A stretch of 64,000 nt of DNA from an uncultured Gammaproteobacteria bacterium (GTDB lineage Bacteria > Patescibacteriota > Microgenomatia > CAYSOG01): positions 1,824-65,823 of the forward strand of contig CAYSOG010000006.1 of NCBI GenBank assembly GCA_964432675.1, given 5' to 3'. Below, one piece after another: positions 33,618 to 58,271 of this stretch. The stretch's first letter is position 1, and every line of letters begins with the position of its first letter. A program made the translations under genes and the position numbers. The notes under the pieces were generated by a model that had not been told where the DNA came from, made no database searches, and was given only the letters and a program-made list of their open reading frames with translations.

Positions 33618-34985
33618 TTATTTTATCATGGTCTTGACTACTTCTATCGCTTTATCGAGTTGCGGGTCTTTGCCTGCCTTGGTGTCATCGACTGTCATCG
33701 TAACTTCTACGTCTGGCTTTATACCCTTCATGTGTACCCAGTAGTCGTTTGGCATAAGCCAACGTGCTCGTGTAATATGGATGCCACTGCCCTTATCTAA
33801 CTCCTCAACTTCTTGGATAGTCCCCTTGCCAAAGGAGGTTTCCCCCACTAACTTGCCACGATTGTTAGCGGATATAGCACCTGCCAGAATTTCCGCAGCG
33901 GAAGCCGAACCTTTATTAATCAGCACAACAACTGGCACTTGCAATAACTTACCTTGGCGGACCGAGGTAAATACCTTTTTGGAACCATCACTGTTTTCCT
34001 GTTTAACAATTGTCCCGTTCACAAATTCAGAACCGATATAAATCGCCGACTCAAGATATCCACCAGGGTTATCACGCAGGTCTAAAACGATTGCCGAAAC
34101 ATTTGATTTTAAGGCCTGGTCAACAGCATCATCCCATTCACTGTTTGTCTGGTCACCAAACCGCGATAACTTAATATAACCGATATTGCCTTCTTTTTTA
34201 GCAAAGGTCACACTTTTAACGTGTATTTCTTCCCTCGTTAGGTCAACCGTATATGGCTTATCGGCACCGGTCCGGTAGAGTTCAAGGGTAATATGGCTCC
34301 CTTTTGGCCCTCTTATCTTATCAACAGCCTCGGGCAAAGATATACCGTCTGTTGCTTGACCACCGATCTTAGTAATATAGTCACCTGCCAAAATACCGGC
34401 ACGCTTGGCTGGCGTATCATCAAGCGGTGACATAACGACAAGGTTGTTATCTTTATATCCAAGTTCAATACCCACACCCTCAAAGTTACCGCCTAAGTCA
34501 TCCTTTGCCTGTTTGTTCTGGTCGGGGCTTAGGAAAGTTGTATACGGGTCGCCCAGCGAAGAAACCATGCCCGAAATTGCGCCATACATCATTTTTTGGG
34601 CATTAACTTTGGACTTATCAAAGTAGGTGTTTGCTAAAAGGTCCCAAACTTCCCAGAATTCCGAAAAATCAACTTGGCTTGATATATGGCTTGGGGTAGT
34701 GCGGTTTTTGACATCATTCGAACCTACAATATTTGGGTATGCCCCTGCCGAACTCGGATGCTGCTGCCCGTACCGCACACCCGAACCAAATGACAATATC
34801 ACAATCACAATCAGCATACTAATACCGACAACCCGGCTCGTGGTAAATCGCCAAATATTACCAAAGAAAGTCTTGGGTGAGCCCTGCTGCAAAGGCACTG
34901 TTTCTGGTGTGGAAGATGCAATCGGATTTGGATTATTGTTTGTAATTTCCATCTTTTTTAATAGTGTTTTACGATATTGCCTCAA
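33618..34985 (-). CDS. ctpA: S41-family C-terminal processing (tail-specific) protease
   Basis: PDZ domain, 'GSASAAEIL' catalytic Ser region and 'DLRDNPGG' motif. Confidence 0.85.
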   Translation of the reverse strand: MRQYRKTLLKKMEITNNNPNPIASSTPETVPLQQGSPKTFFGNIWRFTTSRVVGISMLIVIVILSFGSGVRYGQQHPSSAGAYPNIVGSNDVKNRTTPSHISSQVDFSEFWEVWDLLANTYFDKSKVNAQKMMYGAISGMVSSLGDPYTTFLSPDQNKQAKDDLGGNFEGVGIELGYKDNNLVVMSPLDDTPAKRAGILAGDYITKIGGQATDGISLPEAVDKIRGPKGSHITLELYRTGADKPYTVDLTREEIHVKSVTFAKKEGNIGYIKLSRFGDQTNSEWDDAVDQALKSNVSAIVLDLRDNPGGYLESAIYIGSEFVNGTIVKQENSDGSKKVFTSVRQGKLLQVPVVVLINKGSASAAEILAGAISANNRGKLVGETSFGKGTIQEVEELDKGSGIHITRARWLMPNDYWVHMKGIKPDVEVTMTVDDTKAGKDPQLDKAIEVVKTMIK

Positions 34986-36171
34986 GATTTTGTAACGGTA
35001 CTGTTAATTCTTGCATTGTGGTGGACTTTTTTTCAACTGCCGCTGCCTCTGTGGCCTGGCTTTTTTCAGCATTAAGAACAACTGTCGCTGTATATGCATT
35101 TATACCCGAACCCAAAAGTTCTTGGCGCGTGGAAATCTTTTTAATTTTTCCTGTTTTCCCAAAAGTATTCGCTTCAAGTATTCTAACTAAAAGGCCAGGG
35201 CTTGCTTCTACTGTTGCTGCTGCTTTGACCGTCTGTGCCTGCAGTTTCGCCGCAGCAACAAGTTCTTGCTGCTGAATAGGAATGGTTAAACTTGCTGCGT
35301 TCCCATCGATTATAGCATACCGGCCATTATAAGTTGAAAGCATTGCAAAGTGCTCAAGTCCAATACTAACAGTACCAAAACCTTCGGTGACAATAATAGA
35401 TGTACCAACATCGGTAGCCTGTGTTTCTTGTGGCACTTTCATGCCCATGGCTGCAGCATCGCGCAAGTGGATACCGCCTGTTATTATCCCGCTCGCATGA
35501 AGCATGATCGCTTTTTCCAGTACACCATGGTCGACCAAAGAACCGCCGACAATAATACTGTTTTCCAGTCTCTCATCCATTTTTTGGGGTAATAAGAAAT
35601 CTGAGGCTTCGCAGGCCAACGTGATCCGGCCTTGGCGCTTCTTACCTGACCCCATAACACCATACAGCACAGCCACTTGCGTTTCGATGACAACCGTAAC
35701 TTGGCCTTTAGCAAGCGCCGTATCTTCCGTAACCGCAGCGTGTTTGGTCGTATTTTTGTTAATAGCTTTAACAACGCCCCAATAAAGTGATGACTGGGTC
35801 ATGTGCTGCGGAAACATCCTAATCATGACGTCGCCGTTGTCGTCTATTGATTCGATAATACCATCAATTGGCGCTTTAAATACTTGGTGTTTTAACGAAA
35901 AGAACGTCGATTGTTTGGCAATAATCTCGCCGGTAAATACTTTATCACCCACCTGTTTTTTGATAGCCTTTTTAAATGCGCTACCTTTGGCATGGATACT
36001 ATCACCAACATGGAATATTCGAAATCCCCAGGATACATCGTAATCCGCCAAGACCGTTTCAGGTACAACCGCTTGGCCTACACTGACATGGATCTTCGCA
36101 GAATCCGGAAAATCATATTTAACCGTCTCTTTTTCTTTATATAAAATATCTTGGCGGAGTGGAATTTTCAT
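34969..36171 (-). CDS. Hypothetical protein (400 aa) co-transcribed with ctpA
   Basis: ORF overlapping its neighbours. No recognisable domain. Confidence 0.5.
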   Translation of the reverse strand: MKIPLRQDILYKEKETVKYDFPDSAKIHVSVGQAVVPETVLADYDVSWGFRIFHVGDSIHAKGSAFKKAIKKQVGDKVFTGEIIAKQSTFFSLKHQVFKAPIDGIIESIDDNGDVMIRMFPQHMTQSSLYWGVVKAINKNTTKHAAVTEDTALAKGQVTVVIETQVAVLYGVMGSGKKRQGRITLACEASDFLLPQKMDERLENSIIVGGSLVDHGVLEKAIMLHASGIITGGIHLRDAAAMGMKVPQETQATDVGTSIIVTEGFGTVSIGLEHFAMLSTYNGRYAIIDGNAASLTIPIQQQELVAAAKLQAQTVKAAATVEASPGLLVRILEANTFGKTGKIKKISTRQELLGSGINAYTATVVLNAEKSQATEAAAVEKKSTTMQELTVPLQNLEAIS

Positions 36172-36935
36172 GCTGATTTTTCACCTCGTGGTTGCTCGTC
36201 TTCTATTGTTTTAATCCATGCTGAAACCCGTGCCTTGCCTTGGTCGGTTGGCTGTGGCTTTGCAAATGGCCTACCTCGAGTATCAACCACCATGCCAATT
36301 TCGCCAAAGACCACACTCATGTTGCCTTTTTGTTTCCGGTTAAGGGTTGCTTTACTAAATGAAAATTCGATTTGGGCTTCCTTACCGCTTTGGCCAGCAA
36401 CCCAATGAAGTGTATCCGGTTTTAATGGGACGGTTTGTTTTTCACCGGTTATGAACTGTACTGTCAGTGCATCGTGCGCCATATCCTCATTCCCGTGAAG
36501 CTCACCTTCAATGCACAGGGCTAAACCTAAGTAAACTGTACTATTACCCTGTCGCCTAAAAAATTGGGTAGTGGAAGGCTCAAGGCCATCGAGTGCCACT
36601 AGCACCGCTTCGCGAGCATTTTTGGCGTAGTGAAATATGTGGGGTTCGATAATAATACCTTCGTTTTCAACTGTCACTAAATCGGGAAGTACAAGGGATT
36701 GCGATAAAACGCCTTTATCACCAGTGCCATTCACTTCTTTTGTGCTTGATTGGTTAAGTGACTGACGCAAAGCTGCACGAAGTATGGCGAGGTCAAGCAG
36801 TCGATATTCGTTTGTATTGGGTATGGTATTTGGAAAAAGGGCTTGGTTACCAAAATAATCCTCAATGAAAAATGGTGACGAGGAAAACGGCAGCCAGCAG
36901 GCAATTTCTTCAGCTGGGATGTAGGAAAACTTCAT
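36168..36935 (-). CDS. Hypothetical protein (255 aa)
   Basis: ORF overlapping the downstream gene by 4 nt. No recognisable domain. Confidence 0.5.
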   Translation of the reverse strand: MKFSYIPAEEIACWLPFSSSPFFIEDYFGNQALFPNTIPNTNEYRLLDLAILRAALRQSLNQSSTKEVNGTGDKGVLSQSLVLPDLVTVENEGIIIEPHIFHYAKNAREAVLVALDGLEPSTTQFFRRQGNSTVYLGLALCIEGELHGNEDMAHDALTVQFITGEKQTVPLKPDTLHWVAGQSGKEAQIEFSFSKATLNRKQKGNMSVVFGEIGMVVDTRGRPFAKPQPTDQGKARVSAWIKTIEDEQPRGEKSA

Positions 36936-37949: not shown

Positions 37950-38330
37950 CTATATATTGGTAACGCTTGGTACAGTTGCTGCCGTTGGCCGCTGCCCAAA
38001 CCCTTTGGCTTTCTTAATCTTGCGCTTTAATTGTCGCGTGATTAGATGCCGAACAATTGTCGGGTCAATCTTTAACTTATTTTCTAGTATTAAAATAGCG
38101 GTGGGATCGGCTTGAAAATATAAGAGGTAATAAACTCCACTTGTCTTTTTCTTGATTGGAAAAGCGAAATCACGCTTGCCCCAAACTTCAAGTTCACCTG
38201 GTTCGCCTTTTTGGGCTTCAACCAGAGCCTTAACGCTTGCGACGGCTTTTTCCCGCTTCTCTTCTGACAAATCGGCGTCAACAATAAATGCCAACTCATA
38301 ACCTTGCATAATTTTGTCCTTTCCTGTCAT
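37950..38330 (-). CDS. rpsF: 30S ribosomal protein S6 (likely start at 38311, 'MQGYELAFIV')
   Basis: S6 N-terminal 'YELAFIV' motif. Canonical rpsF-ssb-rpsR order. Confidence 0.85.
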   Translation of the reverse strand: MTGKDKIMQGYELAFIVDADLSEEKREKAVASVKALVEAQKGEPGELEVWGKRDFAFPIKKKTSGVYYLLYFQADPTAILILENKLKIDPTIVRHLITRQLKRKIKKAKGFGQRPTAATVPSVTNI

Positions 38331-38562
38331 GTACCATGGACGCTACTCAAAGCGGCCATATAGATATAGGTACATCGAACTATTTGGCATTGTAAACTAT
38401 TTTTGGCAGTTTTGCAAGGCCAAGTACAAGTGTGCAATATTATAGATCTCGCTACTGTATCGGGATAATCTCCCTCTCAAAGTAATGCAGCCCACTACCA
38501 CAATTGAAATAGGCCAAAGTGGATTTTTGTGTTTTTTTGAAAAACGTTACCAGACCCTATAG

Positions 38563-38591
38563 TTGATTTCAAGCTGGTGCGAGTGTAAAAT
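38563..38591 (+). promoter_or_regulatory. Sigma70-like promoter TTGATT-17-TAAAAT for the paralog cassette
   Basis: TTGATT at 38563-38568 and TAAAAT at 38586-38591. GGAG RBS before the ATG at 38656. Confidence 0.5.
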
Positions 38592-38655
38592 GGCCAACAG
38601 AATTAGGTAAACGATTAATCGTTTACCAGCACATTTCATTTATGGAGTTTCTCAA

Positions 38656-38988
38656 ATGTCTGGTACGTTGCAACGCATTATCCAAGCTCCGAATCGTAGG
38701 GTTGAACTTAAGGCGTTTGCCGGTTTCCCTAATGCTATTGAACTTAATTGCTATCGGTATGTCATTTCAAAAGCTGTTCGTTTTTGGACAGACTGGCAAC
38801 ATCTCGACTACACACTCATTGAATTTCCCAATGGCAACGATCCTAATTGGGACGAGACAGCAATAAGAATACGCAATATGCTGACAAGGTCATATGGTGT
38901 AGGCGCTTCCACCACTCGGTTATTCAACCGTATTATGGAAGCACTCCACCACTCAGAAGACCTCTTCGAGAATAAGGCGTCATCGTGA
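38656..38988 (+). CDS. ORFan paralog family member 1 (110 aa)
   Basis: Shares the motifs 'QRIIQAPNRRVEL', 'EFPNGNDPNWD' and 'NRIMEALHHSEDL' with the next two ORFs. Confidence 0.6.
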   Translation: MSGTLQRIIQAPNRRVELKAFAGFPNAIELNCYRYVISKAVRFWTDWQHLDYTLIEFPNGNDPNWDETAIRIRNMLTRSYGVGASTTRLFNRIMEALHHSEDLFENKASS

Positions 38989-39338
38989 TCGACCACTTTT
39001 CAAAGACCGACCCAAAGAGTACTATTGTTAAGCGAACTATCCAAAGTCCATATTGCAAGGTCCAGCTGCAATTGCATCCGAACGTTGAAAATACGCTGGT
39101 ACTCTATTGTTATCGTACTACCTGGGGCTTAAAAACGAATTGGGAAGATTGGACGCTTGCAGACCAGTTACTCGTAGAATTTCCCGATGGACAAGATCCA
39201 AACTGGGCTATTGTTGCAGTTAATGTCCGAAAAATGGTCAGCAATGCCATAACAACTACAATATCAGTCTCACGCATTACCAATCGAGTTATGAAAGCCC
39301 TCCGCAGTTCCCAAGATCTCATAGAGAAACGGGTATAA
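38985..39338 (+). CDS. ORFan paralog family member 2 (117 aa)
   Basis: 'KRTIQSPYCKVQL', 'EFPDGQDPNWA' and 'NRVMKALRSSQDL'. Start overlaps the previous stop (ATGA). Confidence 0.6.
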   Translation: MIDHFSKTDPKSTIVKRTIQSPYCKVQLQLHPNVENTLVLYCYRTTWGLKTNWEDWTLADQLLVEFPDGQDPNWAIVAVNVRKMVSNAITTTISVSRITNRVMKALRSSQDLIEKRV

Positions 39339-39369
39339 ACCTGACGATTGCTTTGCAAAGGAGTGTACT

Positions 39370-39711
39370 GTGGGAACAAATACCCAGCGTATTGTCCAAA
39401 ATCCCTATTACAAAGTCGAGCTTCAACGTGCTCACCTTCAAAACGCTCGCGGTGATGGATATGATATCGCGATTCAGCTTAAGTGCTACAAAACTGTACC
39501 ACCTTATAGTACGGGACAACCCTGGAAAGATTGGGAACTCATGTCATTGGAGTATATAGAATTTCCTAATGACAATGAGCCTGACTGGGACCACATCGTA
39601 CCGGATGTACAACGTGGACTTCATTTTCAGCTTAGAAAAAATGCCGCTACAACACGCTTTATCAATCGTGTTATAAGTACCCTTCGCAATTCCCAAGACC
39701 TTATCGCATGA
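39370..39711 (+). CDS. ORFan paralog family member 3 (113 aa, GTG start)
   Basis: 'QRIVQNPYYKVEL', 'EFPNDNEPDWD' and 'NRVISTLRNSQDL'. AAGGAG RBS 8 nt upstream. Confidence 0.6.
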   Translation: MGTNTQRIVQNPYYKVELQRAHLQNARGDGYDIAIQLKCYKTVPPYSTGQPWKDWELMSLEYIEFPNDNEPDWDHIVPDVQRGLHFQLRKNAATTRFINRVISTLRNSQDLIA

Positions 39712-39745
39712 ATATCCTGTCCAAACGCGCGAAAAGGAGAAGGTA

Positions 39746-40042
39746 ATGGATATACGGTTGGAAATAAAGCCCAATAAAGCAAGTGCTGACATTAATAAAC
39801 TCAGCGATACAATTGACGAGGGAAATTTTGACGCAGTCGTTGTTAGCGTGGATGATGACGAGAATACGTCTACGCTAGTCTTTAAGCAAGGTACAAATGG
39901 CACATACACTGTCGAAGTTTATGCGCGTGCTGCAGAATGGACCCTTACCGTCATTAAAGCGCTCATCGGTTTTTACGGTTTTGACATTGTCTCAGAGGCC
40001 GAATTTGACTTCTTAGATGGGAAACAATCACCAAATCTTTAA
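39746..40042 (+). CDS. Small acidic hypothetical protein (98 aa), last gene of the cassette
   Basis: AAAGGAGAAGG RBS upstream. Unrelated to the three paralogs. Confidence 0.5.
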   Translation: MDIRLEIKPNKASADINKLSDTIDEGNFDAVVVSVDDDENTSTLVFKQGTNGTYTVEVYARAAEWTLTVIKALIGFYGFDIVSEAEFDFLDGKQSPNL

Positions 40043-40053
40043 GGTTTCATTTC

Positions 40054-40098
40054 GCGCCACGTTCATGCACTTGTGTACTGAACGTGGCGCTTTTTTAT
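40054..40098. terminator. Bidirectional rho-independent terminator
   Basis: GCGCCACGTTCA...TGAACGTGGCGC stem followed by TTTTTTAT, between convergent genes. Confidence 0.65.
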
Positions 40099-41156
40099 GC
40101 GCCAACTTTAAATTCAACGACATCGCCATCGTGCATTACATAATCCTTCCCTTCCATTCTGGCTTTGCCTTTTTCCCGAGCCTGCTTCCAACCGCCGAGT
40201 TGGACAAAATCTGCATAGTCGACCACTTCTGCCTTAATAAATTTTTGTTCGAAATCGGTGTGGATGATGCCCGCAGCTTGTGGTGCTTTGGTCCCGCGCT
40301 TAATAGTCCAAGCCCGTGTTTCTTTTTCGCCTGTTGTTAAAAAGCTAATCAGTCCTAAAACTTCATAACCCCTTTTGATTAACTTCTCCAACCCGCTTTG
40401 TTTTAGTCCATATTCGGCCATAAATGCTTCGGCGTCTTCTTTTGCCATTGAGGCTATTTCGGCCTCAATCTTAGCCGATATAAATACCATATCAGCATTA
40501 TCATGTTTGCTTATAACATCATTTTCATCAACATTCATAACAACAATTTTGGGTTTGATCGTTAGAAGATTTAATTCACGTATAAGGTCCTTTTCCTCAT
40601 CAGACAATGATAAATCGCGGACAGGTACCCCCCTATAGAGCCCGTCTATTACTTTGTCAATTGTCTCTTTTTGATTTTTTATTTGTAATTTTGATTTTTG
40701 CTGTCTGATTTTTGCATTTTCTGTTGTTTGCATGTCTGCTAGGACAAGCTCAGTATCTATCGTCTCGACATCAGATTCAGGATTTTCGCCGGTTTGAATA
40801 ACGTTAGTGTCAGAAAAAGCTCTAACAACATGGACAATGGCATCGCATTCACGAATATTAGCTAAAAATTGGTTTCCCAAACCTTCGCCTTGGTGGGCGT
40901 TTTTGACCAACCCCGCAATATCAATAAACTTCACCACCGCCGGTACGATTTTTTGAGAACTAGATAGATTAGCAAGGACTGCGAGGCGCTTGTCCGGCAC
41001 CTCAACCACCCCAATGTTCGGGTCAATTGTCGTAAACGGATAATTCGACGCCTGCGCCACCTGCTTCTTCAAAAGCGCGTTAAACAACGTCGACTTCCCC
41101 ACATTCGGCAACCCAACAATACCTATTGATAAGTTCATATTGTGCAATTGTACCAA
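40095..41156 (-). CDS. ychF: Redox-regulated ATPase/GTPase YchF
   Basis: 'GIVGLPNVGKSTLFNAL' P-loop and TGS-like C-terminal domain. Likely start at 'MNLSIG'. Confidence 0.9.
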   Translation of the reverse strand: MVQLHNMNLSIGIVGLPNVGKSTLFNALLKKQVAQASNYPFTTIDPNIGVVEVPDKRLAVLANLSSSQKIVPAVVKFIDIAGLVKNAHQGEGLGNQFLANIRECDAIVHVVRAFSDTNVIQTGENPESDVETIDTELVLADMQTTENAKIRQQKSKLQIKNQKETIDKVIDGLYRGVPVRDLSLSDEEKDLIRELNLLTIKPKIVVMNVDENDVISKHDNADMVFISAKIEAEIASMAKEDAEAFMAEYGLKQSGLEKLIKRGYEVLGLISFLTTGEKETRAWTIKRGTKAPQAAGIIHTDFEQKFIKAEVVDYADFVQLGGWKQAREKGKARMEGKDYVMHDGDVVEFKVGA

Positions 41157-42173: not shown

Positions 42174-43310
42174 TTAGCGGAGGTTGTATATTTGGTCGGC
42201 GAGGGTGGTTAGTTCTTGGGTGCCTTGGAGGATATTAATCCAGGCTTGGGGAAAGACCATGCCATTTTTGGCGCCGGCAAGGGCACCGTAGATTGAAGCA
42301 GTGCTGTCGCAGTCACCGCCGAAGTTGATTGTACGGAGCATGCCTTCGACTGGATTTCCCCAATACTTTTGGAACATGAAAATAGTGAATGGATAATTTC
42401 GGGTCACTGCCCAACCGGTACCAAGTTCGCTGTACGCCTCTTCCTCTTCAGCATCACGATTAGCCAAAACCCAAGCTAGCCGGTCGGCCAGCAATACCTT
42501 TTTCCCCTGCTCTTTTGAATATTCGAAACGCTTAGCGACGTTAACGACACTATCCAAAAACTCATCTTTCTCTAAATTGTACAGCAATGCGTATATGGCA
42601 TGCGCTTGGACAACACCGCTTGCAACCGAGCGGCCGTCTAAGTGTGTCATCTGCCCTACTCGCTCGGCAAACGCCAATCCCTCCCGATAATTTCCCTTCG
42701 CATACATATATAACCCTAGAGGTGCCACCTTTAAAGCAGGCGCATTACCAGGGTTTCTTGATTCCACACCAGAATTTTCTGGTGGAATACCGCGCTTGAG
42801 GTTTTCAAAGCCTTCGATGGTTGTTCCACCAAAACTGCCCCAATCGCCGCCGGTTTGTGCAAGGTCTTTGCGCTGTTCGTACACAAAAAGACTATGTTTG
42901 GCGACATTTTGCAGATCTAAACCACGGCTTTCAATAATTGAACGTGCGGTGATAACCGATAACCAAGTATCATCGGTCCACTGCCCTTTTTCTAAATTCG
43001 TGGAAATATATGGAATACGGCCGTTTTCATCGGCCTCAAGAATATTGCCGGCAGTATCTCTTACAAAAAATGGCTTGATCGGCTCGGTGATTGCGCCAAC
43101 ATGTCGGCGGATTTGTTCCCTATCCCAACCTTCAACCGGCATGCCCAAGGTGTCGCCGACTGCACCGCCGATCATTGTCGCGCGATAATGGCCTATCAGC
43201 TCTTTATCAACTAGCTCATTATTTGGGATAATATCTTTAGAACTTCTTTCGGCCATAATTCCCTTTCGCCGCCATTGTACCAGATTTTTGCTATAAAAAA
43301 AGCGCCACAT
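42174..43310 (-). CDS. ADP-ribosylglycohydrolase-family protein
   Basis: 'GAVGDTLGMPVEGW' and downstream Asp-rich metal-site motifs of the DraG/ARH family. Confidence 0.8.
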   Translation of the reverse strand: MWRFFYSKNLVQWRRKGIMAERSSKDIIPNNELVDKELIGHYRATMIGGAVGDTLGMPVEGWDREQIRRHVGAITEPIKPFFVRDTAGNILEADENGRIPYISTNLEKGQWTDDTWLSVITARSIIESRGLDLQNVAKHSLFVYEQRKDLAQTGGDWGSFGGTTIEGFENLKRGIPPENSGVESRNPGNAPALKVAPLGLYMYAKGNYREGLAFAERVGQMTHLDGRSVASGVVQAHAIYALLYNLEKDEFLDSVVNVAKRFEYSKEQGKKVLLADRLAWVLANRDAEEEEAYSELGTGWAVTRNYPFTIFMFQKYWGNPVEGMLRTINFGGDCDSTASIYGALAGAKNGMVFPQAWINILQGTQELTTLADQIYNLR

Positions 43311-47557: not shown

Positions 47558-47661
47558 AGTTTCTATCTCCTGTCTCTTCTTTTCAGACTAACGAATATGC
47601 GATTAAGATACTACTGTCAGAAAAGCCTAAAGCTTTGTTAATGGATAAATTCTATAAAGTG

Positions 47662-48249
47662 CTAGATCCAGCCCTTTTTGTAGAAATAAAGCCTTGCTAA
47701 AATTTCATATACAATATTCCGCCAGTGGCCTCGAGTTTGCCAGTGCAGTGAGTTGGGATCGTATGGCACGCCAAAAGTATTGGCAGCGAATACTTCGCTA
47801 AATCCAAGCTTTTTCGTGGTCCAGACTGCCCGAACCATTTGGTCTGGATGCGCAACAATCAAGGCAGTATTCCACCCTCGGTAGCGACAAAGGCTTAATG
47901 CACGCTCTCCTATTTCATGGGTATTCGGTTCTTTGCGGGCAAACATCGATCTTCGTACATTTAACGAGACCTGCCGACGCAAGCCATATGGCAGACAATC
48001 AACAAGTTGCTCTTGCAAGATAAAAGGGATATTGTAGCCTTGGTGTAGCTCAACGGCAATTGCGGCCAACCGCTCGTTTGCTGGGCTTGAACCGTCTTTC
48101 CTTAAACCGCTCGCAAAGCCAATGATAACCTTTGCCCCAGCCTGCGTTGCTGTAAGGCTGGGCTTCATATGCCAGGTAAAAATACAGCGCCAGATCTTAA
48201 TTAGGTCCAAACCGGCACCCCTTTGTTGAGGATTTTGTAAACGTGCCAA
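47662..48249 (-). CDS. Hypothetical protein (195 aa; possibly DUF218/YdcF-like)
   Basis: ORF with globular composition. The family assignment is a guess. Confidence 0.4.
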   Translation of the reverse strand: MARLQNPQQRGAGLDLIKIWRCIFTWHMKPSLTATQAGAKVIIGFASGLRKDGSSPANERLAAIAVELHQGYNIPFILQEQLVDCLPYGLRRQVSLNVRRSMFARKEPNTHEIGERALSLCRYRGWNTALIVAHPDQMVRAVWTTKKLGFSEVFAANTFGVPYDPNSLHWQTRGHWRNIVYEILARLYFYKKGWI

Positions 48250-48310
48250 GATACTTGGAAATTGCTTTTCCTTTCAATACCCAAATATCTTTTGGATGGT
48301 GAAAGGAAAA

Positions 48311-48336
48311 GCGGAGGGCCAATTTAGGCCCTCCGC
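48311..48336 (-). terminator. Perfect 10-bp hairpin GCGGAGGGCC/GGCCCTCCGC at the left edge of the high-GC segment
   Basis: Followed on the minus strand by TTTTCCTTTC. Confidence 0.5.
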
Positions 48337-48528
48337 GATTAGATACTACAGATGCAGCGTTGCGGCAACACGGCCGGCAAAAAAACCGCAATGGTAGCCG
48401 ATTGAATAACCAAAGGCATGTGCCCGCTGATGGACGCGCAACCGAAAGGTTGGGTCGATAAGCTTTGCGGCAAAGTGCCTTACGATAGAGCTTCTCATTG
48501 GCGTTTCTCCTTTACGCTTTTGCGAAAC

Positions 48529-48987
48529 TTATTCGGTAAGAGCAACCGCGGCGGCCGCAGGGCCACTACTCGGCCGATGCGGCACAGGCGAACCAAAAGG
48601 ACCGTCGCCACCATCATCGAGTCGAGTTGGCCCGCTTTCCCCCGGCGAATTTGGCGGAGCAGGAATTTGGTCGAACGCAATCTTCAATGCTACGGATATG
48701 CTAAACTCTTGCTCACACGCTTCACAGGTTGCCAGATGGGCATAAAAAGCCTGATAGTCATGTTCCCTACGATGGCTTCGACCGTCGGCAAAGATTTCTG
48801 TCATGGCTTCCATGAGCCAACGCGCCTGTTGGTGTGTTGCCGGCTGCCAATTAAATAGTTGGGCCTGCAATATTCGCCAGCGCCGAATACAAATGGGACA
48901 CTTTACAATATGGTCGTCGAGAAGTTCGATATTGTACCTTATGTGAAATTCCTGCTGAGGGCAAAAATCGAAACCTTGTCTTGCCAT
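48529..48987 (-). CDS. Zinc-finger protein with zf-HC2-like motif (anti-sigma-factor-like) and Pro/Gly-rich tail
   Basis: 'CPICIRRW' plus 'HLATCEAC' (H-x3-C-x2-C). Confidence 0.45.
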   Translation of the reverse strand: MARQGFDFCPQQEFHIRYNIELLDDHIVKCPICIRRWRILQAQLFNWQPATHQQARWLMEAMTEIFADGRSHRREHDYQAFYAHLATCEACEQEFSISVALKIAFDQIPAPPNSPGESGPTRLDDGGDGPFGSPVPHRPSSGPAAAAVALTE

Positions 48988-49188
48988 GGGCTTGTCTTCT
49001 CCCTGCTACTTGTCGCTGCTGTAGAAATTAAAGTGCTTATAGTACTAGCTCAACCTTTATTCGTAGGGTTAAACTATGGACATTATAACAGAGAGACACT
49101 CTTGGGTCAATAACTATAGGATGTAAAATCTTGCAATGCAACAGTTGTAGCCTGAAACATTGTAAAAGATAGATGGTAATTTTCCATA

Positions 49189-49223
49189 GAAAAAGGGCGG
49201 TTGTCTTGTAAGACAACCGCCCT
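49189..49223 (-). terminator. Rho-independent terminator (GGGCGGTTGTCTT-gta-AGACAACCGCCC) for the high-GC gene
   Basis: Perfect 12-13-bp stem with a T5 run on the minus strand. Confidence 0.65.
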
Positions 49224-49273
49224 GGGTTGGTGTCCGCCATGGTGGCGAACGGGTTTCGTTGAACGGGCCGAGG

Positions 49274-50050
49274 CTATCCGCGACCGCCGCGCTGGCGGTT
49301 TCTGTACTCGGCGTCGCGAGCCGATCTCTCGGCTTGCTGCTGGCGCCGCTCCGGTGGCGCACCCCGGTGGTTGCGCGGGTCTGTGGCCCGGCAGTCTCGG
49401 AGATGCGTGGCCAGTAGCGGGAGCAGCCGGCGAATCTCGGCCTGCTTGGGCCTGCTCTTGGTGGCGCCGTCGATTTCCTCCTGGCTAAGCCAGGGAAACT
49501 CCGACTGCTCGATCTTCTCGACATTTCTGAGAAGGGCGAGCGCGCCAATCAGAAGCAGCTGCTGCGGCTTTCGCATGAGCCCCGCCTCCTCGGCGAGGTT
49601 CTCGAAATGCGGGAGATACGTATCCCGCTGGGCCGACATGCAGGCCAAGAAGAGCTGCCAAGCGGCCTCGCGCGCCGCGGCGTAATCCGGTTCGAGGTCG
49701 TCCAGGATCATATCCCGGATCCGCTCCAGTTCCGCCTTGAGTTCGACCCGGCGTGGCTCGGCGATCCCATCCCAGCCGGTAGCAAATTGCGCGGTCTGGA
49801 ACTGCCGCCGGGCGGCCTCGTCGATCGGGATCCGCGGCTGATGCTGCTGGTCGGTGCCGGACTGCTCGTCGGTAGCGCAACCGAGAGACTTGCTGGCCTC
49901 GCGGATGACCCGGTCGATGGTCCCCTCCACGGGGGTCTCGGTGACGGTCTGGTCGGCGGTCTCGACGACGGTCTGGTCGGCGGTCTCGACGACGGGCTTC
50001 TGGTCGGCGGTGGCTTCGGTGCTATCAACGGTCTTGGCGGTCTTGGTCAT
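49274..50050 (-). CDS. High-GC hypothetical protein with tandem 8-aa repeats (start at 'MTKTAK')
   Basis: Protein-like frame among several GC-driven overlapping ORFs. N-terminal VETADQTV repeats and a helical C-terminal domain. Own terminator. Confidence 0.5.
   Translation of the reverse strand: MTKTAKTVDSTEATADQKPVVETADQTVVETADQTVTETPVEGTIDRVIREASKSLGCATDEQSGTDQQHQPRIPIDEAARRQFQTAQFATGWDGIAEPRRVELKAELERIRDMILDDLEPDYAAAREAAWQLFLACMSAQRDTYLPHFENLAEEAGLMRKPQQLLLIGALALLRNVEKIEQSEFPWLSQEEIDGATKSRPKQAEIRRLLPLLATHLRDCRATDPRNHRGAPPERRQQQAERSARDAEYRNRQRGGRG
49946..50014. repeat. Tandem direct repeat, 24-nt unit GGTCTGGTCGGCGGTCTCGACGAC x2 plus a partial third copy
   Basis: Read directly from the sequence. 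Encodes the VETADQTV repeats of the 49274 gene. Confidence 0.8.
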
Positions 50051-50197
50051 CTGGCCTTCTCCTGTACAATGAACCTGGCAACACGTGCTAAACGGTAGCA
50101 CACCGCGCCCAAAATGGGCGAAAGACTCTTGCCACAGTTTCATCCGGAGGCCCACGGGCCCGCCGAAAAAAACTAACAAGCCGATGACTGGGCGCCG

Positions 50198-50425
50198 TCA
50201 AAACGACGGCGCCTCCGACATGAACTCAAGGAACTTGCGGTCCGCTTCGGTAAGGACTGGGTCGACAAAAAGCCGACCATTGTCCTTTCCACAGCGGGGC
50301 AATGTCCCTCGGGTCGCCGGCGCCTCGGCCGCAGAAAGCCCACCTTCGTGGACCTTACCGCAGCTCAGGCAGGTTACGTCGAATTCCGTTGTGTTCGGAA
50401 TCACCGGTCTTGCCGCAACTACCAT
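50198..50425 (-). CDS. Small Cys-containing protein (75 aa), high GC
   Basis: 'CLSCGKVHEGG...PRCGKDNG' putative zinc-ribbon. Confidence 0.4.
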   Translation of the reverse strand: MVVAARPVIPNTTEFDVTCLSCGKVHEGGLSAAEAPATRGTLPRCGKDNGRLFVDPVLTEADRKFLEFMSEAPSF

Positions 50426-50894
50426 GTATTCCTCCTAAAAACTAGCCTCTCCGCTGAGGCTTCCATTACAAGGACTTACCATTCGTAAATCCCGATAATA
50501 GAAACCTCACCGTTTTAGCGTTGCTTAAAGGAAGTATTGTTCAACGATAATAATAGTAATGTGCAAATGCTTTTGGGTTTTTACGCCCTCAAGCGTTTGT
50601 TTGCAATTTGCGGCAAAAATAATTCGCAAATCCAAACAATTGTTGTGAAGTATATCACACTACAGGCCTTTTGTCAAGTATCTATAGGTCATACTATATA
50701 AATGTATAACCCTGCATAGATGCTATACACGCCATGTGTACCAGGATCAATAAAAGACATATGCCCTACTTCGCCGGACTACTTATACCATATGTATATA
50801 TAACTATAAGTTATGTATAGGCATTGCCTAGACACAGATTTCTGCATATTGTCATCCTGGCTTAATTGCATTATTTATGTTAGATAAAGCCAAT

Positions 50895-50931
50895 AAAAAA
50901 GGGCCGCGGTATTCATACCGCGGCCCAAAAA
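50895..50931. terminator. Bidirectional terminator GGGCCGCGGTA-ttca-TACCGCGGCCC flanked by A/T runs, downstream of the helicase
   Basis: Perfect 11-bp stem. A6 upstream and A5 downstream on the plus strand. Confidence 0.7.
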
Positions 50932-50972
50932 CCCTTGCAGTTTATATTGGTACTGCAAAAACGACAAATAGC

Positions 50973-53939
50973 CTACTTAGCGGAAGGCTGTACCGCTTTT
51001 TGGTACACTTCCCGCAACAGGCCAATCTTCTTTACTTTGTGGCCGCTTTTAAGGCCCTCTTGGTTAACAAATCCCCAATACGTCTTCCCCCTTTCAGGCG
51101 TTGCCACTTCCGAAGCGGTGGCATCGAATTCGAAAAGCATGCCGTATGAAATTTCATCAATCGGCACAACCTTGTCGCCTTCGAACTGGTACTGCCCCGC
51201 TCCCGGCCAATGTTCGGCGTGGAACTGCGCAAGCCATGCGTCGTATTCGGCCTGCTTTTCCGCTTCCTCTTGGGCCAAGAGCTCAGCAAATTCGCGATCG
51301 AACTGCTCCTGTTTCCGTTGCAACAGCGCTTGCTCCAACCGAACCTGTTCGGCTTCGGCAGCAGCTTGCCGCCTTCGCGATAGCTCTTGCGCTTCAGCCT
51401 GCATCCGAGCCAGTTGAGCTTCTCGCTGCGCTTGCAGCGCCACTTCGCGGTTTGCTTCATAGGTTGGCCGGTTAGTGTCGATGAACTCGCTGGCAGCCGA
51501 AAGTCGCATCTCAGCGTCGGCCGGCCACTGCTCATCGAGCACCTTCAGTCGAAGGGCTTCAAGATCTTGGTAAAACGTGTAAGCCCTTTGGTCATCTTCA
51601 GCAAGTCCCCACATCGCCAAATCATTGCGAATTAACCACAGCACACCAGTAATACTATCAATCAAAGCCAGCTGGCTTCGCTGCGCTTCGGTTTGGTAAC
51701 GCCAGCGTTCCGATTCCGGAACTTCATCGCGCGTACACAAAACTTCCTCATATGCCACTTCTTGGCCAAGCACTGTAGTCGTGCGAGATTTGGTCCATTC
51801 TACCCGCATAAAACCGGGGGGTTTTGGATTGCCCTCGCGAACACTGACCATATGCGGGGCAACTTCAAGCAGCCACTCGACCTCGACTTTTTGGCAGCCA
51901 CGGGCAAAATTGCGTTTGCCTTTTGGCGTTGTGACACCTTGAATACCAGCACAGACAATAATCTGCGGTGGCGTATGAAACAACACGCTATCACGCGAAA
52001 TATACAACGCGGTGTCTTCCTCACGCGACAATGACCAAATGCTACGCGGCTTGGCGCCGGCCCAGGTGTAGCTGAACCTGCCATTTGAAACGGCCAAGTT
52101 CTGCATTAAACCAGCTGCCACTGCCTTGCCGATCACCGCAACTTGGCTCTTTTCGGTGTCAGTTAGTTCCCAACGGTCGACTGCCTTTTGGTAGCCTACC
52201 GATGTGACCTCGATCCCCATCAGCATAATAATATCCATAAGTTGCCGACGGATTTTGAGGATTTCATCAAGGCTTCGATGGTTCAAAAAGTGGTCACGTG
52301 CCCAATCATGGTCATAACCCGCGTCTGCGTATTCGTTCATGACGTTTAATACGGTTAGGAAATCGCTGTCATGAACAGACAAGCGTTGCCGCCACATGTC
52401 TGCATCAGCTTCATGGTCACGCGGCCTGGTAAAAAGCCGGTTGACCGAAAGGCTTGCGGCAATGGTGCAGATTTCTGCAATACAGCCATGCTTTTCGGCT
52501 TCCAAGATCATACGGCCGATGGTTGGTTCAACTGGTAGTTTTGCCAATTGCTGGCCGACATCGGTCAACGTATTATCAGCGTCAACCGCCCCAAGTGCCC
52601 GAAGTGTTTCAAGTGCGTTATGGAGCGCTTGCTTTGGCGGCGAGTCGATGAACTCGAACTCCTCGACATCAGTAATGCCAAGGCTCAGCATCTTCAACAC
52701 CACACTCGACAGTTCGCTGCGCACAATCTCGGGTACGGTAAACTCATCTGCATGGTCATACTCGGCCTCTGTAATAAGCCGGTAACAGTTGCCTTCATCG
52801 GTCCGCCCTGCCCGGCCGGCACGTTGGCCCATACCAGACTTCGAATGCAATATGGTCTGCAAGCTGCTAATGCCGCTGTGCGGATCAAACTGCATTTGGC
52901 GGATAAGGCATGAGTCGACCACATCAACCGCAGTTTGCGGTGTGATAGATGTTTCAAGCACGTTGGTGCCGATAATCACCCGACGGCGGTTTGAAGGAAT
53001 AAAGACGCGCTGCTGTTCGTCCGGGCTCATGTCGCCATGAACTGGAATAAGCTCGGCGTCGATATTAAGCCGTTCGAGAAATTCAATTGTCTTATTAATC
53101 CAGGCAAGGCCCGGCATAAAGACCATGATATCCCGTTTGGCTCTTTGGCTGGCAATAATTTGACTTACTTTGTATGCCGCCAGTGCTTCAACCGGAACCG
53201 GTTTGTCCGGATCGATTAGCCCCAGGAACTGGTCTCGAGCCTTATGATGTTCGCCCGGCTGAAGGTAATGGACCGTGACGGGAAACTGTTTCCCAACAAC
53301 CTGGATGATTGGCGCATTGTCGAAAAACGCCGAGAACTTTTCGGCATTAATGGTGGCCGACATGATAATAAGTTTCAAGTCAGGCCGCAACCGTAATGCT
53401 CGCTTCGCCAGGCCAATGGCAAAATCAGTATCGACGTTGCGTTCGTGCGCTTCGTCGAACCCGATAATGCCGTATTGATAGAACCCTTGGTCATGAATGG
53501 CTTCCTGAAGCAGGATACCATCGGTCATAAACTTAATTTTCGTGCCAACGCTTGTTTCATCGTCGAAGCGAATTTGGTAGCCGACTTCGTTGCCAATCCT
53601 ACTACCTAGCTGCCTGGCGACAAATTGGGCAACGGTAATTGCCGCAATGCGCCTGGGCTGGGTGATGCCAATCCTGCCAGTTTGAAGCATGTCTGCGTTG
53701 TACAGGAATTGTGGAACCTGGGTTGTCTTACCGCTGCCAGTTTCGGCAACCAAGATGGTTACCTGGTTCTGCCGAATGGCCTCGACAATTTCGTCTTTGT
53801 GCTGGCCAACGGGCAATTGAAGGTTCACGTTTTCGTTCCTCACGAGCAGGGGCCCTGGCGTTGCCAGGAATTGCCCACCCTGCTCCGACCACTTTTTCAG
53901 GTCTTGTCCGAAGTCTTTCCGTAAAGGGCAACGGACCAT
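50973..53939 (-). CDS. DEAH-box ATP-dependent helicase, HrpA/HrpB-like, with C-terminal OB/coiled-coil extension
   Basis: 'VAETGSGKTTQVPQF' (motif I), 'GFDEAHER' (DEAH) and helicase-associated HA2/OB-like region. Long Gln/Ala/Glu-rich coiled coil near the C-terminus. Confidence 0.85.
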   Translation of the reverse strand: MVRCPLRKDFGQDLKKWSEQGGQFLATPGPLLVRNENVNLQLPVGQHKDEIVEAIRQNQVTILVAETGSGKTTQVPQFLYNADMLQTGRIGITQPRRIAAITVAQFVARQLGSRIGNEVGYQIRFDDETSVGTKIKFMTDGILLQEAIHDQGFYQYGIIGFDEAHERNVDTDFAIGLAKRALRLRPDLKLIIMSATINAEKFSAFFDNAPIIQVVGKQFPVTVHYLQPGEHHKARDQFLGLIDPDKPVPVEALAAYKVSQIIASQRAKRDIMVFMPGLAWINKTIEFLERLNIDAELIPVHGDMSPDEQQRVFIPSNRRRVIIGTNVLETSITPQTAVDVVDSCLIRQMQFDPHSGISSLQTILHSKSGMGQRAGRAGRTDEGNCYRLITEAEYDHADEFTVPEIVRSELSSVVLKMLSLGITDVEEFEFIDSPPKQALHNALETLRALGAVDADNTLTDVGQQLAKLPVEPTIGRMILEAEKHGCIAEICTIAASLSVNRLFTRPRDHEADADMWRQRLSVHDSDFLTVLNVMNEYADAGYDHDWARDHFLNHRSLDEILKIRRQLMDIIMLMGIEVTSVGYQKAVDRWELTDTEKSQVAVIGKAVAAGLMQNLAVSNGRFSYTWAGAKPRSIWSLSREEDTALYISRDSVLFHTPPQIIVCAGIQGVTTPKGKRNFARGCQKVEVEWLLEVAPHMVSVREGNPKPPGFMRVEWTKSRTTTVLGQEVAYEEVLCTRDEVPESERWRYQTEAQRSQLALIDSITGVLWLIRNDLAMWGLAEDDQRAYTFYQDLEALRLKVLDEQWPADAEMRLSAASEFIDTNRPTYEANREVALQAQREAQLARMQAEAQELSRRRQAAAEAEQVRLEQALLQRKQEQFDREFAELLAQEEAEKQAEYDAWLAQFHAEHWPGAGQYQFEGDKVVPIDEISYGMLFEFDATASEVATPERGKTYWGFVNQEGLKSGHKVKKIGLLREVYQKAVQPSAK

Positions 53940-54106
53940 TTGGTTGAGCAGGGCTGCTCGATTACAGAACCGATCGGGCGCTAATTTTTAATAGCCCATC
54001 AGCTTTTTTCCTTTCTTTTTATTTTCATTGCTTGTTAAGGTACATTTGGAAGCTAAACTTCCCTAAAACTCACTTTCGCCTTTATATAGAGCGACAATGA
54101 GCTTGA

Positions 54107-54138
54107 GGAAAGCCACGTCTGTGTAAACCAGACGTGGC
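54107..54138 (-). terminator. Hairpin GCCACGTCTG-tgtaaac-CAGACGTGGC downstream of the 54152 gene
   Basis: Perfect 10-bp stem. Separates the helicase from the ORFan array. Confidence 0.5.
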
Positions 54139-54151
54139 GAAAAATGTCTAT

Positions 54152-54751
54152 CTACTGATTGATGTTAACACCCAGTTGGGCTTCTGCTGGCACGCCTTGT
54201 GCCAAGAGCGCCTGAAGGTATTCCGAACTCGGCAGTTTGTTGATATATTCGGCGAACTTAGCCGGGTACTCCCGACGCGCCCGTTCATACAGGATTTCAA
54301 TGACCCGAGAATCGACAAGCCCATTAAGGTAGTTCCGGCCTGGAGTAAATGGTGCCTGCCGATGGTTTCGCTTGACGAGCTGTCGAGCACCCTGGTCAAA
54401 GTGCTTCACAACATACGCCCGCATGATAGCAACGTATTGGCCGCCTTCCATGTTTGGCAACGGAACCAAAAGGTACCGGTCTGCAATGCGGAGTGCATGG
54501 GCATAGTCCGCATCAAGTCGCAACCTATTGATTAGCTGCTTGCGTTCAACCAACGACTCAGCGAACGGTCGCCGTAAAGCTATGACTGGACCATAGTTCA
54601 GCCGCCTGTTCAGCCACAATAGCTGCCGCCCGAACCAGCGATTTACCCATCGAAACTTCCACCGAAGGGCGAATGAGGCAATGATAAGGAAAAAGGCGAA
54701 AACCGCCATTACGGTCAACACCTGCCCAAAGACTGTTACTACTTCTTCCAT
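54152..54751 (-). CDS. Hypothetical membrane-anchored protein (199 aa)
   Basis: N-terminal TM helix. Arg-rich. Confidence 0.45.
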   Translation of the reverse strand: MEEVVTVFGQVLTVMAVFAFFLIIASFALRWKFRWVNRWFGRQLLWLNRRLNYGPVIALRRPFAESLVERKQLINRLRLDADYAHALRIADRYLLVPLPNMEGGQYVAIMRAYVVKHFDQGARQLVKRNHRQAPFTPGRNYLNGLVDSRVIEILYERARREYPAKFAEYINKLPSSEYLQALLAQGVPAEAQLGVNINQ

Positions 54752-54781
54752 CTGCTCTCCCCTTTCTCTTGCTTGGTAAGG

Positions 54782-55561
54782 TTACGCCGGCACCGGGTCT
54801 GCGAGCCGAACAAGGCGAAAATTAAACCCTTTGCCGTAGGGCGTCGCATGCAAAACTATTCGGGAACGAGCTGGTATGGAACTATGCGGGTCGATCGACA
54901 CCCAAAATGCGGCGGTAAACAATCTAGAATGTTCCTTGAAATAGAGTAGTCGATTATGAATGTAAGACGCTACCTCCGGATCACCTTCGATATTATCTCT
55001 CTCAATAACAACAAAGGCTTGGCCGTTACCACCTGGATAGTAGTAATAGTTATTATCAACAGAAACTGTCACTTCACGAACGCACTTGCGTTCGATCAAT
55101 TCCACCGCCCGACCGTGCCCGATGGACATATATTGCAGTTCACCGTGTAGCATTACCGGTTCTATAAAGTCTTCAGGGCACCTGCCCTCACTAACGCGCA
55201 TAATGCATCCACTTTCCACAATGAAGTCGCAGTATTGCGCGATATAGGAAATCGGGAGATGGTCGTTTGCTATTTGGCATGTTAGGCCCATTTTCCTTGC
55301 TCGAACCTCACCTACTAATTCCATGCAGCCTGAATTTTCAGAGAGGACGACAAAGAGCTCATCGTCATAAAGCTCATGGGATATGTACTGAAGCTGCTCT
55401 CCGGATAAATCACCAGCTCCGAGAAATTCACCCTTCTCATTGAACCATCGTCCCCGCGAAATCCAGGGGTCAGAGCGTTCAACTTGTCCGCCTCGTAAGC
55501 CGAACAAGCCTGCTGCTCCTATATTCAGACCGCTATACATACCTTTGACAAGACGGGACAT
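54782..55561 (-). CDS. Hypothetical protein (about 260 aa from 'MSRLVKG'; ORF extends to 55720)
   Basis: AGGAGG RBS 6 nt upstream of the ATG at 55559-55561. Contains 'NYYYYPGGNG'. Confidence 0.45.
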   Translation of the reverse strand: MSRLVKGMYSGLNIGAAGLFGLRGGQVERSDPWISRGRWFNEKGEFLGAGDLSGEQLQYISHELYDDELFVVLSENSGCMELVGEVRARKMGLTCQIANDHLPISYIAQYCDFIVESGCIMRVSEGRCPEDFIEPVMLHGELQYMSIGHGRAVELIERKCVREVTVSVDNNYYYYPGGNGQAFVVIERDNIEGDPEVASYIHNRLLYFKEHSRLFTAAFWVSIDPHSSIPARSRIVLHATPYGKGFNFRLVRLADPVPA

Positions 55562-55756
55562 GATCTGCCTCCTCTTTTCGCTTTGCTGCTTTCCATCAAT
55601 TTTGTAGATTTTTAATGTACCATTTGGACACGCTTCGTGCCCAAACTGAAGGCTATTCCCTTCCGCAAACGTTTTTATACGCTTAAGGCATAAAAATGCT
55701 TGAGGAAAGGCCCCGTCCATCAGCCAGTTGGTGAATGAACGGGGATGAAAATTACT

Positions 55757-55942
55757 CTACAGAAGATTAAGAAGATCAAAGAGCCCAAGGGAGTTCCAAT
55801 ACTTTAATTTCCTATCCCAGTAGGCAGCCACGGCTAAGTGGAAATGTCTATCGTGCTCCAGCTGTTCACGCCGCGCTTCCAATGCTTCCAATAAGCGCTC
55901 AGCACTCCAGAATAAATAGATGAACTTCCAAAGCTGCTTCAT
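55757..55942 (-). CDS. Small hypothetical protein (61 aa)
   Basis: Overlaps the upstream gene stop. Helical. Confidence 0.3.
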   Translation of the reverse strand: MKQLWKFIYLFWSAERLLEALEARREQLEHDRHFHLAVAAYWDRKLKYWNSLGLFDLLNLL

Positions 55943-56274
55943 CGAATATCGCCGCTTGGCGCAAGTGAGTTGATGTAGGTTGCAATCGTAAGGAGCGCAG
56001 TATTAATGGGTACGGAATGGTTGCTTCTTACTATGCATGCTTCGGACAACGTGTTCAATATTGTTTTTTGTTGAACAGCATTCAATTTGGTATCGAGATT
56101 ATTGCAAAGCCCAAGGAGATTTGACGTAATTAAACTTCCAAGGTCTTCTAATGTTCCAAGTTGTGCAACCGCTCTAATATTCGGGAACAACTCCCCAGCC
56201 CTGGAAATTATATTCCCTAATTCTTGAGCAAATTCTCGAACCGTCATAGGTTCATTAGCGAGTTTCTGGACCAT
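55939..56274 (-). CDS. Hypothetical protein (111 aa), possible HTH
   Basis: Strong RBS AAAAAGGAGG. 'MTVREFAQELG' helix-turn-helix-like segment. Confidence 0.4.
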   Translation of the reverse strand: MVQKLANEPMTVREFAQELGNIISRAGELFPNIRAVAQLGTLEDLGSLITSNLLGLCNNLDTKLNAVQQKTILNTLSEACIVRSNHSVPINTALLTIATYINSLAPSGDIR

Positions 56275-56418
56275 TTTTCCTCCTTTTTGTTCCGCTTCGT
56301 TTTTCTGTAGGTATTTGAATGTGCAATTTGAAGCATACCGCTTCCTGAAACCCTCTAGGCTGCTGGCCTAAAAAGTTTGAGGAATGGGCGGGACGGCTTT
56401 TTAAGCCGTCCCGCAAAT

Positions 56419-56670: not shown

Positions 56671-56687
56671 TGGCTTATTTCCTTGGC

Positions 56688-58270: not shown

Positions 58271-58271
58271 C

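Follow-up and report, generated by a model that had tools for sequence, protein, structure and literature searches.

Introduction

The closest described counterparts of the locus reported here are the homogeneous polyimmunity loci of polymorphic toxin systems, tandem arrays of SUKH, Imm6, Imm11, Imm28, Imm33, Imm36 or Imm41 paralogs. According to the 2012 survey of such loci by Zhang et al. (PMC3482391), their proteins are members of immunity families, which are recognised by occurring together with toxins elsewhere; the genes stand in tandem, in the same orientation and with small spacing, uninterrupted by toxin genes; and gene number and type differ between strains or close relatives. The survey also describes an adjacent recombinase in several of these loci, though not as an obligatory feature. 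Here we describe a cassette of four small genes, P1 to P4, on a 64,000-nucleotide (nt) stretch of contig CAYSOG010000006.1 (the window, below) from a Patescibacteria-like clade. The cassette, which consists of three paralogous genes (P1-3) and an unrelated fourth, lies between the conserved genes ychF and rpsF, and we are confident that it is a genuine lineage-restricted accessory operon, occupying a slot in which related genomes gain and lose genes.

Organisation and coding potential

The four open reading frames (ORFs) of the cassette all lie where a preliminary description of this DNA had placed them (aa, amino acids; pI, isoelectric point):

38656-38988, + strand: P1, paralog 1, 110 aa, ATG start, pI 7.9
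38985-39338, + strand: P2, paralog 2, 117 aa, GTG start, pI 9.3
39370-39711, + strand: P3, paralog 3, 113 aa, GTG start, pI 6.8
39746-40042, + strand: P4, acidic protein, 98 aa, ATG start, pI 4.12

Every one of the four has a Shine-Dalgarno-like sequence 6-7 nt before its start: GGAG 7 nt upstream of P1, AAAGGAG 6 nt upstream of the GTG of P3, which agrees with the AAGGAG ribosome-binding site proposed for that gene earlier, and AAGGAG 6 nt upstream of the ATG of P4. The start of P2 overlaps the stop codon of P1. This overlap had been recognised before, but had been given as ATGA; the letters are GTGA and the start codon is GTG. The intergenic spacers (P1/P2, P2/P3 and P3/P4) are -4, 31 and 34 nt and all genes share the + strand, which supports the view of the cassette as a compact co-oriented unit, with a 98-residue acidic protein following P3 as first described.

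P1, P2 and P3 are indeed paralogs, with BLASTP E-values of 3e-27 (P1-P2), 2e-22 (P1-P3) and 2e-19 (P2-P3) and identities of 32-36%. The P1-P3 alignment has 24 invariant columns, and the four sequence motifs by which the family was originally characterised are all present as written. At the DNA level the cassette contains repeats with periods of 356 and 382 nt. P4 is unrelated to P1-3 as judged by BLASTP, and six-frame searches of the window turned up no additional copy of P1-3 or P4.

A codon log-likelihood model trained on the window's Pfam-confirmed genes scores above zero in the annotated frame only, for 4 of 4 ORFs. P1-3 score 0.12-0.16 bits per codon, towards the bottom of the host range; P4, with 0.47 bits per codon, has the best score of the four. 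Codon identity between the paralogs is lowest at third positions (0.36-0.42) and highest at second positions (0.57-0.62), and an independent Logan assembly of sequencing run SRR9179562 matches the rpsF-P1-P2 junction at 100%; a literature search for that accession found no mention of it. The four genes are, with high confidence, real.

How old are the copies? Synonymous divergence (dS) between the paralogs, estimated by the Nei-Gojobori method, runs from 1.7 to saturation, and the ratio of nonsynonymous to synonymous divergence (dN/dS) is 0.36-0.38, about 0.37 as a crude figure. With dS saturated, the paralog dN/dS is uninformative for positive selection, and the diversifying selection that the preliminary description had proposed to seek by this comparison is not shown. 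These same values do indicate that the copies are old and have been kept by purifying selection; very probably an ancestral gene of ~110 aa was triplicated in tandem long ago and all of its copies have remained under net purifying selection.

A conserved scaffold with variable elements

An AlphaFold2 model of P1, built from an alignment of the three paralogs only, reached a best predicted local distance difference test (pLDDT) score of 82.7 and a predicted TM-score (pTM) of 0.74, with the five models spanning pLDDT 78.6-82.7. Structure prediction, which had been suggested for the paralogs and their acidic neighbour alike, thus yielded a confident fold for P1 but not for P4, for which the single-sequence AlphaFold2 model is poor (pLDDT 62.8). 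The P1 model comprises four antiparallel strands, then three helices, as follows:

P1 residues 6-11: strand 1, AlphaFold2 model
P1 residues 14-20: strand 2, AlphaFold2 model
P1 residues 27-37: strand 3, AlphaFold2 model
P1 residues 44-56: strand 4, AlphaFold2 model
P1 residues 65-80: helix α1, AlphaFold2 model
P1 residues 84-98: helix α2, AlphaFold2 model
P1 residues 102-108: helix α3, AlphaFold2 model

P3 carries a 7-residue insertion in the loop that joins strands 2 and 3. No signal peptide and no membrane segment is found in P1-3, for which the maximum Kyte-Doolittle(19) hydropathy does not exceed 1.28, and we regard them, with considerable confidence, as soluble cytoplasmic α+β proteins, each with a four-stranded antiparallel sheet ahead of three helices. 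When the P1 model was compared with the Protein Data Bank (PDB) and BFVD by Foldseek, no match had an E-value of 1e-3 or lower, and TM-scores against the PDB did not exceed 0.37.

Conservation among the paralogs is unevenly distributed over this fold. Invariant positions account for 27-38% of the residues in the strands, in the E-F-P...P-x-W loop and in helices α2 and α3, for 1 of 16 in helix α1, and for none of the six in either of the loops 21-26 and 38-43. The conserved parts are the E-F-P-x-x-x-[DE]-P-x-W loop, the C-terminal helices with the pattern N-R-[IV]-x-x-x-L-x-x-S-x-D-L, and the core. Because no catalytic signature was recognised in P1-3, their sequences suggest that they most likely act by binding.

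An orphan family

No credible match was found for any of P1-P4 in Pfam, PHROGs, NCBIfam or PADLOC. A word-indexed protein search of 5.8 billion clusters returned only the cassette proteins themselves, and a HMMER profile of the three paralogs, run against 1.84 billion representatives, recovered the three paralogs and four long repeat proteins only. The latter (P0004-P0007) are HEAT-like, tape-measure-like and cadherin-like proteins; they were rejected as homologs because their E-values arise from summed repeats. P4 has no homolog in the protein-cluster search, and phage and plasmid records searched by tblastn with P1 and P4 gave no match. Nor was there any match in motif scans of IMG/VR and of JGI metagenome contigs, or in metagenome scans using rpsF peptides and the conserved family motifs, and a profile search of the PDB by sequence gave nothing below E 0.1. 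Two marginal similarities, of P2 to the RsgA N-terminus (NCBIfam, E 0.022, 13.8 bits against a cut-off of 483) and of P3 to Helicase_IV_N (E 0.2), were treated as noise.

The paralogs are therefore an ORFan family, as first described, lacking homologs among both the representatives and the clusters searched. This orphan status partly reflects sparse sampling, since with the closest sampled genome at 72% YchF identity any gene born or acquired after the split will look like an orphan. The protein family is new, and its fold possibly so.

A variable slot between ychF and rpsF

The cassette is bounded by two genes assigned by Pfam, both on the opposite strand:

37950-38330, - strand: rpsF, left boundary of the slot
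40095-41156, - strand: ychF, right boundary of the slot

M8, at 38309, is probably the true start of rpsF; it is preceded by AAAGGA and opens the protein with MQGYELAF, which is also how the relatives begin. For ychF, the start used in the public record is probably 41138, giving a protein of 347 aa. Pfam assignments flanking the cassette are rpsR, ssb and rpsF to the left and, to the right, ychF together with genes for a MOSC protein and an ADP-ribosylglycohydrolase. Elsewhere the window is unremarkable chromosome, encoding DnaB, HisRS, a class I tRNA synthetase, TGT, TldD/PmbA, RF, PrmC and Lgt.

The species representatives of the Genome Taxonomy Database (GTDB) do not include the source genome, and the best YchF matches among them are 55% identical (Candidatus Kerfeldbacteria and other Patescibacteria). 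Closer relatives are found on Logan contigs, with YchF identities of 72, 71, 69, 68 and 62%. The gap was compared in eight relatives (L082-L086, L002, L004 and L023), with the L086 contig ending before rpsF, so that only the gene after ychF is visible there. The backbone ychF - gap - rpsF - ssb is kept wherever there is enough flanking DNA, and past ssb, within reach of the contigs, come rpsR, a homolog of orf255 (L082, L084), a homolog of orf400, an S41 protease and HtrA. The content of the gap is as follows:

L085, gap of 86 bp: no gene
L083, gap of 137 bp: no gene
L004, gap of ~750 bp: no convincing gene
L082: genes of 107 aa and 266 aa
L084: 298-aa weakly GDPD-like gene, opposite strand
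L086, directly after ychF: 187-aa gene
L002: EamA transporter and hypothetical gene
L023: four metabolic genes

Three of the eight relatives thus have no called gene in the gap, and the other five carry different, unrelated cargo. Neither BLASTP against the cargo of L082 and L084 nor a six-frame profile search of L082-L085 found anything related to P1-P4. In a neighbour-joining tree of YchF, the genome of the window stands alone as sister to a clade with 75-83% mutual identity, and gap content differs in each member of that clade, even at 81-83% YchF identity. Since each relative has different content, the ychF-rpsF gap is a fast-turnover slot of which the cassette is one lineage's cargo, and in this Patescibacteria-like clade insertions have recurred at this point. 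The synteny comparison thereby supports the earlier claim that the cassette was inserted into a conserved neighbourhood; none of the relatives has the cassette, and the family does not represent a housekeeping domain.

The intergenic DNA of the relatives is too diverged to delimit the boundaries of the insertion. A mobile element was considered as its origin and rejected: no direct or inverted repeats were found framing the cassette, there is no anomaly in GC or in GC at third codon positions (GC3), and phage, plasmid and IMG/VR searches gave no match. The insertion, lacking repeats, an adjacent recombinase or a GC anomaly, is either old or came from a donor of similar composition. As separate observations on the same region in relatives, L083 has a Fic gene and a MazE-like gene upstream of ychF, and L085 has a serine recombinase with phage-like genes.

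Transcription signals

Three signals frame the four genes:

38563-38591, + strand: promoter-like site TTGATT-17-TAAAAT, 9/12 matches
38606-38627, + strand: perfect 9-4-9 palindrome GGTAAACGA-TTAA-TCGTTTACC, 22 bp
40054-40096, + strand: intrinsic terminator, 16-bp hairpin (40054-40090) then T6 (40091-40096)

The TTGATT-17-TAAAAT site to which the promoter had been assigned is present, but it does not stand out from chance: 12 promoter-like sites were found in the cassette region against 8.3 +/- 3.4 in shuffled sequences, that is, with no enrichment. We infer a promoter somewhere in 38310-38655 mainly from the gene arrangement: operon and rpsF are divergent, and no + strand gene precedes the operon for ~7 kb. 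The divergent gap between rpsF and the operon is about 325-346 bp and also holds a promoter-like site for rpsF, at 38417 to 38389.

The 22-bp palindrome lies downstream of the -10 hexamer and ahead of the P1 ribosome-binding site and is unique in the window even when up to 3 mismatches are allowed. In the folded 5' leader (38592-38665) it forms a stable hairpin with a 9-bp stem; the minimum free energy of the whole leader is -16.7 kcal/mol (z -2.8). Its sequence and position would suit either a hairpin in the 5' untranslated region (5'-UTR) or an operator. The rpsF-P1 spacer matches no Rfam family, and the sole Rfam match in the whole window is one tRNA.

Downstream, the terminator hairpin (inverted repeat I5, with perfect arms of 12 nt) has a dG of -27.4 kcal/mol (z -4.66), and its T-run overlaps the ychF stop codon. 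The preliminary description had called this terminator strong and bidirectional. Its strength is confirmed, with T6 following the hairpin on the + strand, but on the - strand the hairpin is followed by GAAATGAAACC; with the T-run on the + strand only, the terminator is not canonically bidirectional.

Neighbouring genes

On the rpsF side, a hairpin-like element, ATATGGCCGC...GCGTCCATGG (38334-38361, - strand), lies just 5' of the internal ATG of rpsF. Part of it is conserved in L082 and L083, where one pair is compensatory; it has no Rfam match and may be an rpsF leader. Further along, between rpsR and the S41 protease, two overlapping ORFs of 255 and 400 aa (orf255 and orf400; 34969-36935, - strand) have no Pfam domain. 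Homologs of orf255 in L082 and L084, and of orf400 in L084, occupy the same position at 42-45% identity; judged by sequence and position, the two are a lineage-conserved pair attached to the rpsF-ssb-rpsR cluster. Partial duplication of orf255 was considered as a source of the cassette and rejected (BLASTP E 0.063, hhalign probability only 1.1%).

On the ychF side, 2 kb from the cassette, lies the ADP-ribosylglycohydrolase (42174-43310, - strand). Members of this enzyme family can confer immunity to ADP-ribosylating toxins; this one may be simply housekeeping. At greater distances, a 1122-aa protein (7176-10544, + strand) combines an LCAT-like α/β-hydrolase lipase domain with a weak chitobiase C-terminal-like domain. 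This candidate, which may be a secreted lipase or effector on the evidence of these domains, is 28 kb from the cassette and has no evident link with it. The region 47600-62200 has a GC content of 0.47-0.61 (peak 0.608, at 49001-50000) against about 0.43 elsewhere, and 9 of its 9 ORFs scanned lack a Pfam match; a 988-aa HrpA-like DEAH helicase (50973-53939, - strand) is the only recognisable gene. This region may be a foreign island.

Discussion

What would such a cassette do? The single most likely mechanism, which we put forward only tentatively, is that of a homogeneous polyimmunity-type array. The operon would be co-transcribed as one unit; P1-3 would be equivalent in function, each neutralising a different target according to its variable helix and loops; the acidic P4 would add another neutraliser, unrelated to them; and the array as a whole would protect the cell against toxins of its neighbours or its host. 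Three observations are consistent with this. The genes are in tandem and in one orientation, with the very small spacers given above, and the flanking genes have no toxin domain. The content of the slot differs in every relative, the nearest being at 72% YchF identity, and none has a related cassette. Divergence is concentrated in α1 and two loops on a conserved scaffold, a pattern seen among the paralogs only. The suggestion of an immunity or anti-defence role in the preliminary description therefore stands as regards architecture, but direct evidence, in the form of a family match or a link to a toxin, is not found.

Several points weigh against a polyimmunity-type array. P1-P4 match no immunity family, as seen from the Pfam, NCBIfam, PADLOC and PHROG searches, and the P1-3 family, being without relatives in the collections searched, offers no neighbourhood in which a toxin could co-occur with it. 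The cognate toxin sought within the window did not emerge, for none of the 40 larger ORFs scanned in its 64 kb has a polymorphic-toxin domain. The copies look like local duplicates rather than cassettes accreted by transfer; their GC and GC3 are host-like, and no recombinase is adjacent, the flanks being rpsF and ychF/MOSC. In the 2012 survey, extended polyimmunity loci are recorded only from Proteobacteria, Bacteroidetes, Firmicutes and Actinobacteria (PMC3482391). Lastly, the translational coupling and the similar sizes of the proteins would fit the subunits of one complex equally well.

This last point leads to a second explanation, possible though somewhat unlikely, that P1-3 are the subunits of a single lineage-specific hetero-oligomer, with the acidic P4 perhaps serving as their partner or capping them. 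When an oligomeric protein has tandem paralogs, these often assemble into hetero-oligomers; here the paralogs would have arisen from a self-associating ancestor, and the operon would encode one machine or scaffold rather than a set of equivalent proteins. The GTGA overlap, together with spacers of 31 and 34 nt, implies that expression is coupled and stoichiometric; the three proteins have similar lengths and share a core, loop and C-terminal helices; and P4 has a charge opposite to that of the basic P2 (pI 4.1 and 9.3). On the other hand, a cassette that is absent in every relative cannot encode a core machine, and the most divergent parts are elements of a surface type, which would suit divergent specificities at least as well.

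It is also conceivable, although we think it unlikely, that P1-3, with a previously unseen fold or family, belong together with P4 to a hitherto undescribed class of conflict or symbiosis proteins specific to Patescibacteria. They would then be either a new immunity or neutraliser family against toxins of the host or neighbours or a new hetero-oligomeric assembly of the episymbiotic lifestyle, and cassettes of this sort would have a dedicated landing pad in the ychF-rpsF gap of the lineage.

The order of elements in the P1 model, four strands and then a helix, is that of the PUR, Whirly and ssRNA-phage coat-type folds (MRP1/2, Pur-α and MS2 coat). P1-3 might thus bind single-stranded DNA or RNA through an exposed four-stranded sheet, in the manner of these proteins, and so serve to regulate nucleic acids or to protect them. 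Aromatic and basic residues conserved on the strands (R7, Y33, W44 and W47) and neutral to basic pI values point in this direction, but the fold echoes on which the proposal rests are weak and there is no sequence match to any nucleic-acid-binding family, which makes it quite unlikely.

More improbable still is a toxin-antitoxin (TA)-like or abortive-defence module, in which one component would be growth-inhibitory and P4 or a paralog would neutralise it. The perfect 22-bp palindrome between the -10 hexamer and the ribosome-binding site would then be a candidate autoregulatory operator, but it may be no more than an mRNA hairpin. A set of small proteins with an acidic member is what such a module would contain, and TA-type genes do occur near the neighbourhood in relatives (MazE-like and Fic in L083; Phd and ParE in L084). 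Against this, neither Pfam nor PADLOC gives a match to a TA or defence model, no known TA layout has four genes of which three are paralogs, and no DNA-binding domain is recognisable in the cassette proteins.

Two further proposals fare worse. That the genes are non-functional or decaying duplicates without a cellular role would account for the lack of homologs and of annotation anywhere searched, but it is very hard to reconcile with three intact frames that keep 24 invariant residues despite saturated synonymous sites, with a frame-specific coding signal, with good ribosome-binding sites and a strong terminator, and with the confident AlphaFold model of P1. That they encode accessory ribosome-associated proteins, distant kin of PSRP-3/cS23 (Ycf65), is suggested by their position next to rpsF-ssb-rpsR and ychF and by an F-[W]-P...D-x-W motif, of superficial similarity, where the sheet meets the first helix, but this kinship is effectively rejected on sequence grounds (hhalign profile-profile probability 0.2%; no match to Pfam PSRP-3, PF04839, at E up to 1), and a cassette on the opposite strand and absent in all relatives is outside the conserved ribosomal cluster, so that the idea is barely credible.

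If the immunity-type reading is true, polyimmunity-like arrays would extend to an ultra-small episymbiotic lineage, and P1-3 would be a new protein family with a confident predicted fold and no convincing structural neighbour. Loci of this kind are in themselves familiar: small hypothetical proteins encoded in a tandem array that is specific to one lineage and occupies a variable slot, here in the genome of a poorly sampled candidate phylum. The ychF-rpsF gap is, in any case, a practical place to seek accessory or conflict genes in related genomes.

Relation to known systems

Class I type III secretion chaperones (CesT, SycN and ExsC) are acidic dimers in which the elements run α-β-β-β-α-β-β-α; P1-3, in contrast, are neutral to basic and have another order of strands and helices, and no secretion-system genes were found among the window ORFs scanned. 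The cassette resembles type II TA operons in being a compact operon of small proteins, with a palindrome near the promoter, in a variable region, but it differs from them in its four genes with three paralogs, in matching no TA family and in having no DNA-binding antitoxin domain.

Compared with the homogeneous polyimmunity loci, as the survey presents them, the cassette differs in several ways: P1-P4 are in no described Imm or other family and are without homologs; there are three copies only, with no recombinase nearby, and the copies are apparently local duplicates; and the host phylum is one from which the survey records no such loci (PMC3482391). The resemblance is nevertheless close in other respects. 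Like these loci, the cassette consists of tandem, distant paralogs of one small cytoplasmic protein, co-oriented with tiny spacers and presumably carried on one polycistronic mRNA; no toxin gene lies in or beside the array; an unrelated small protein is appended; and the slot that it occupies differs in content between the related genomes compared, none of which has a related cassette.

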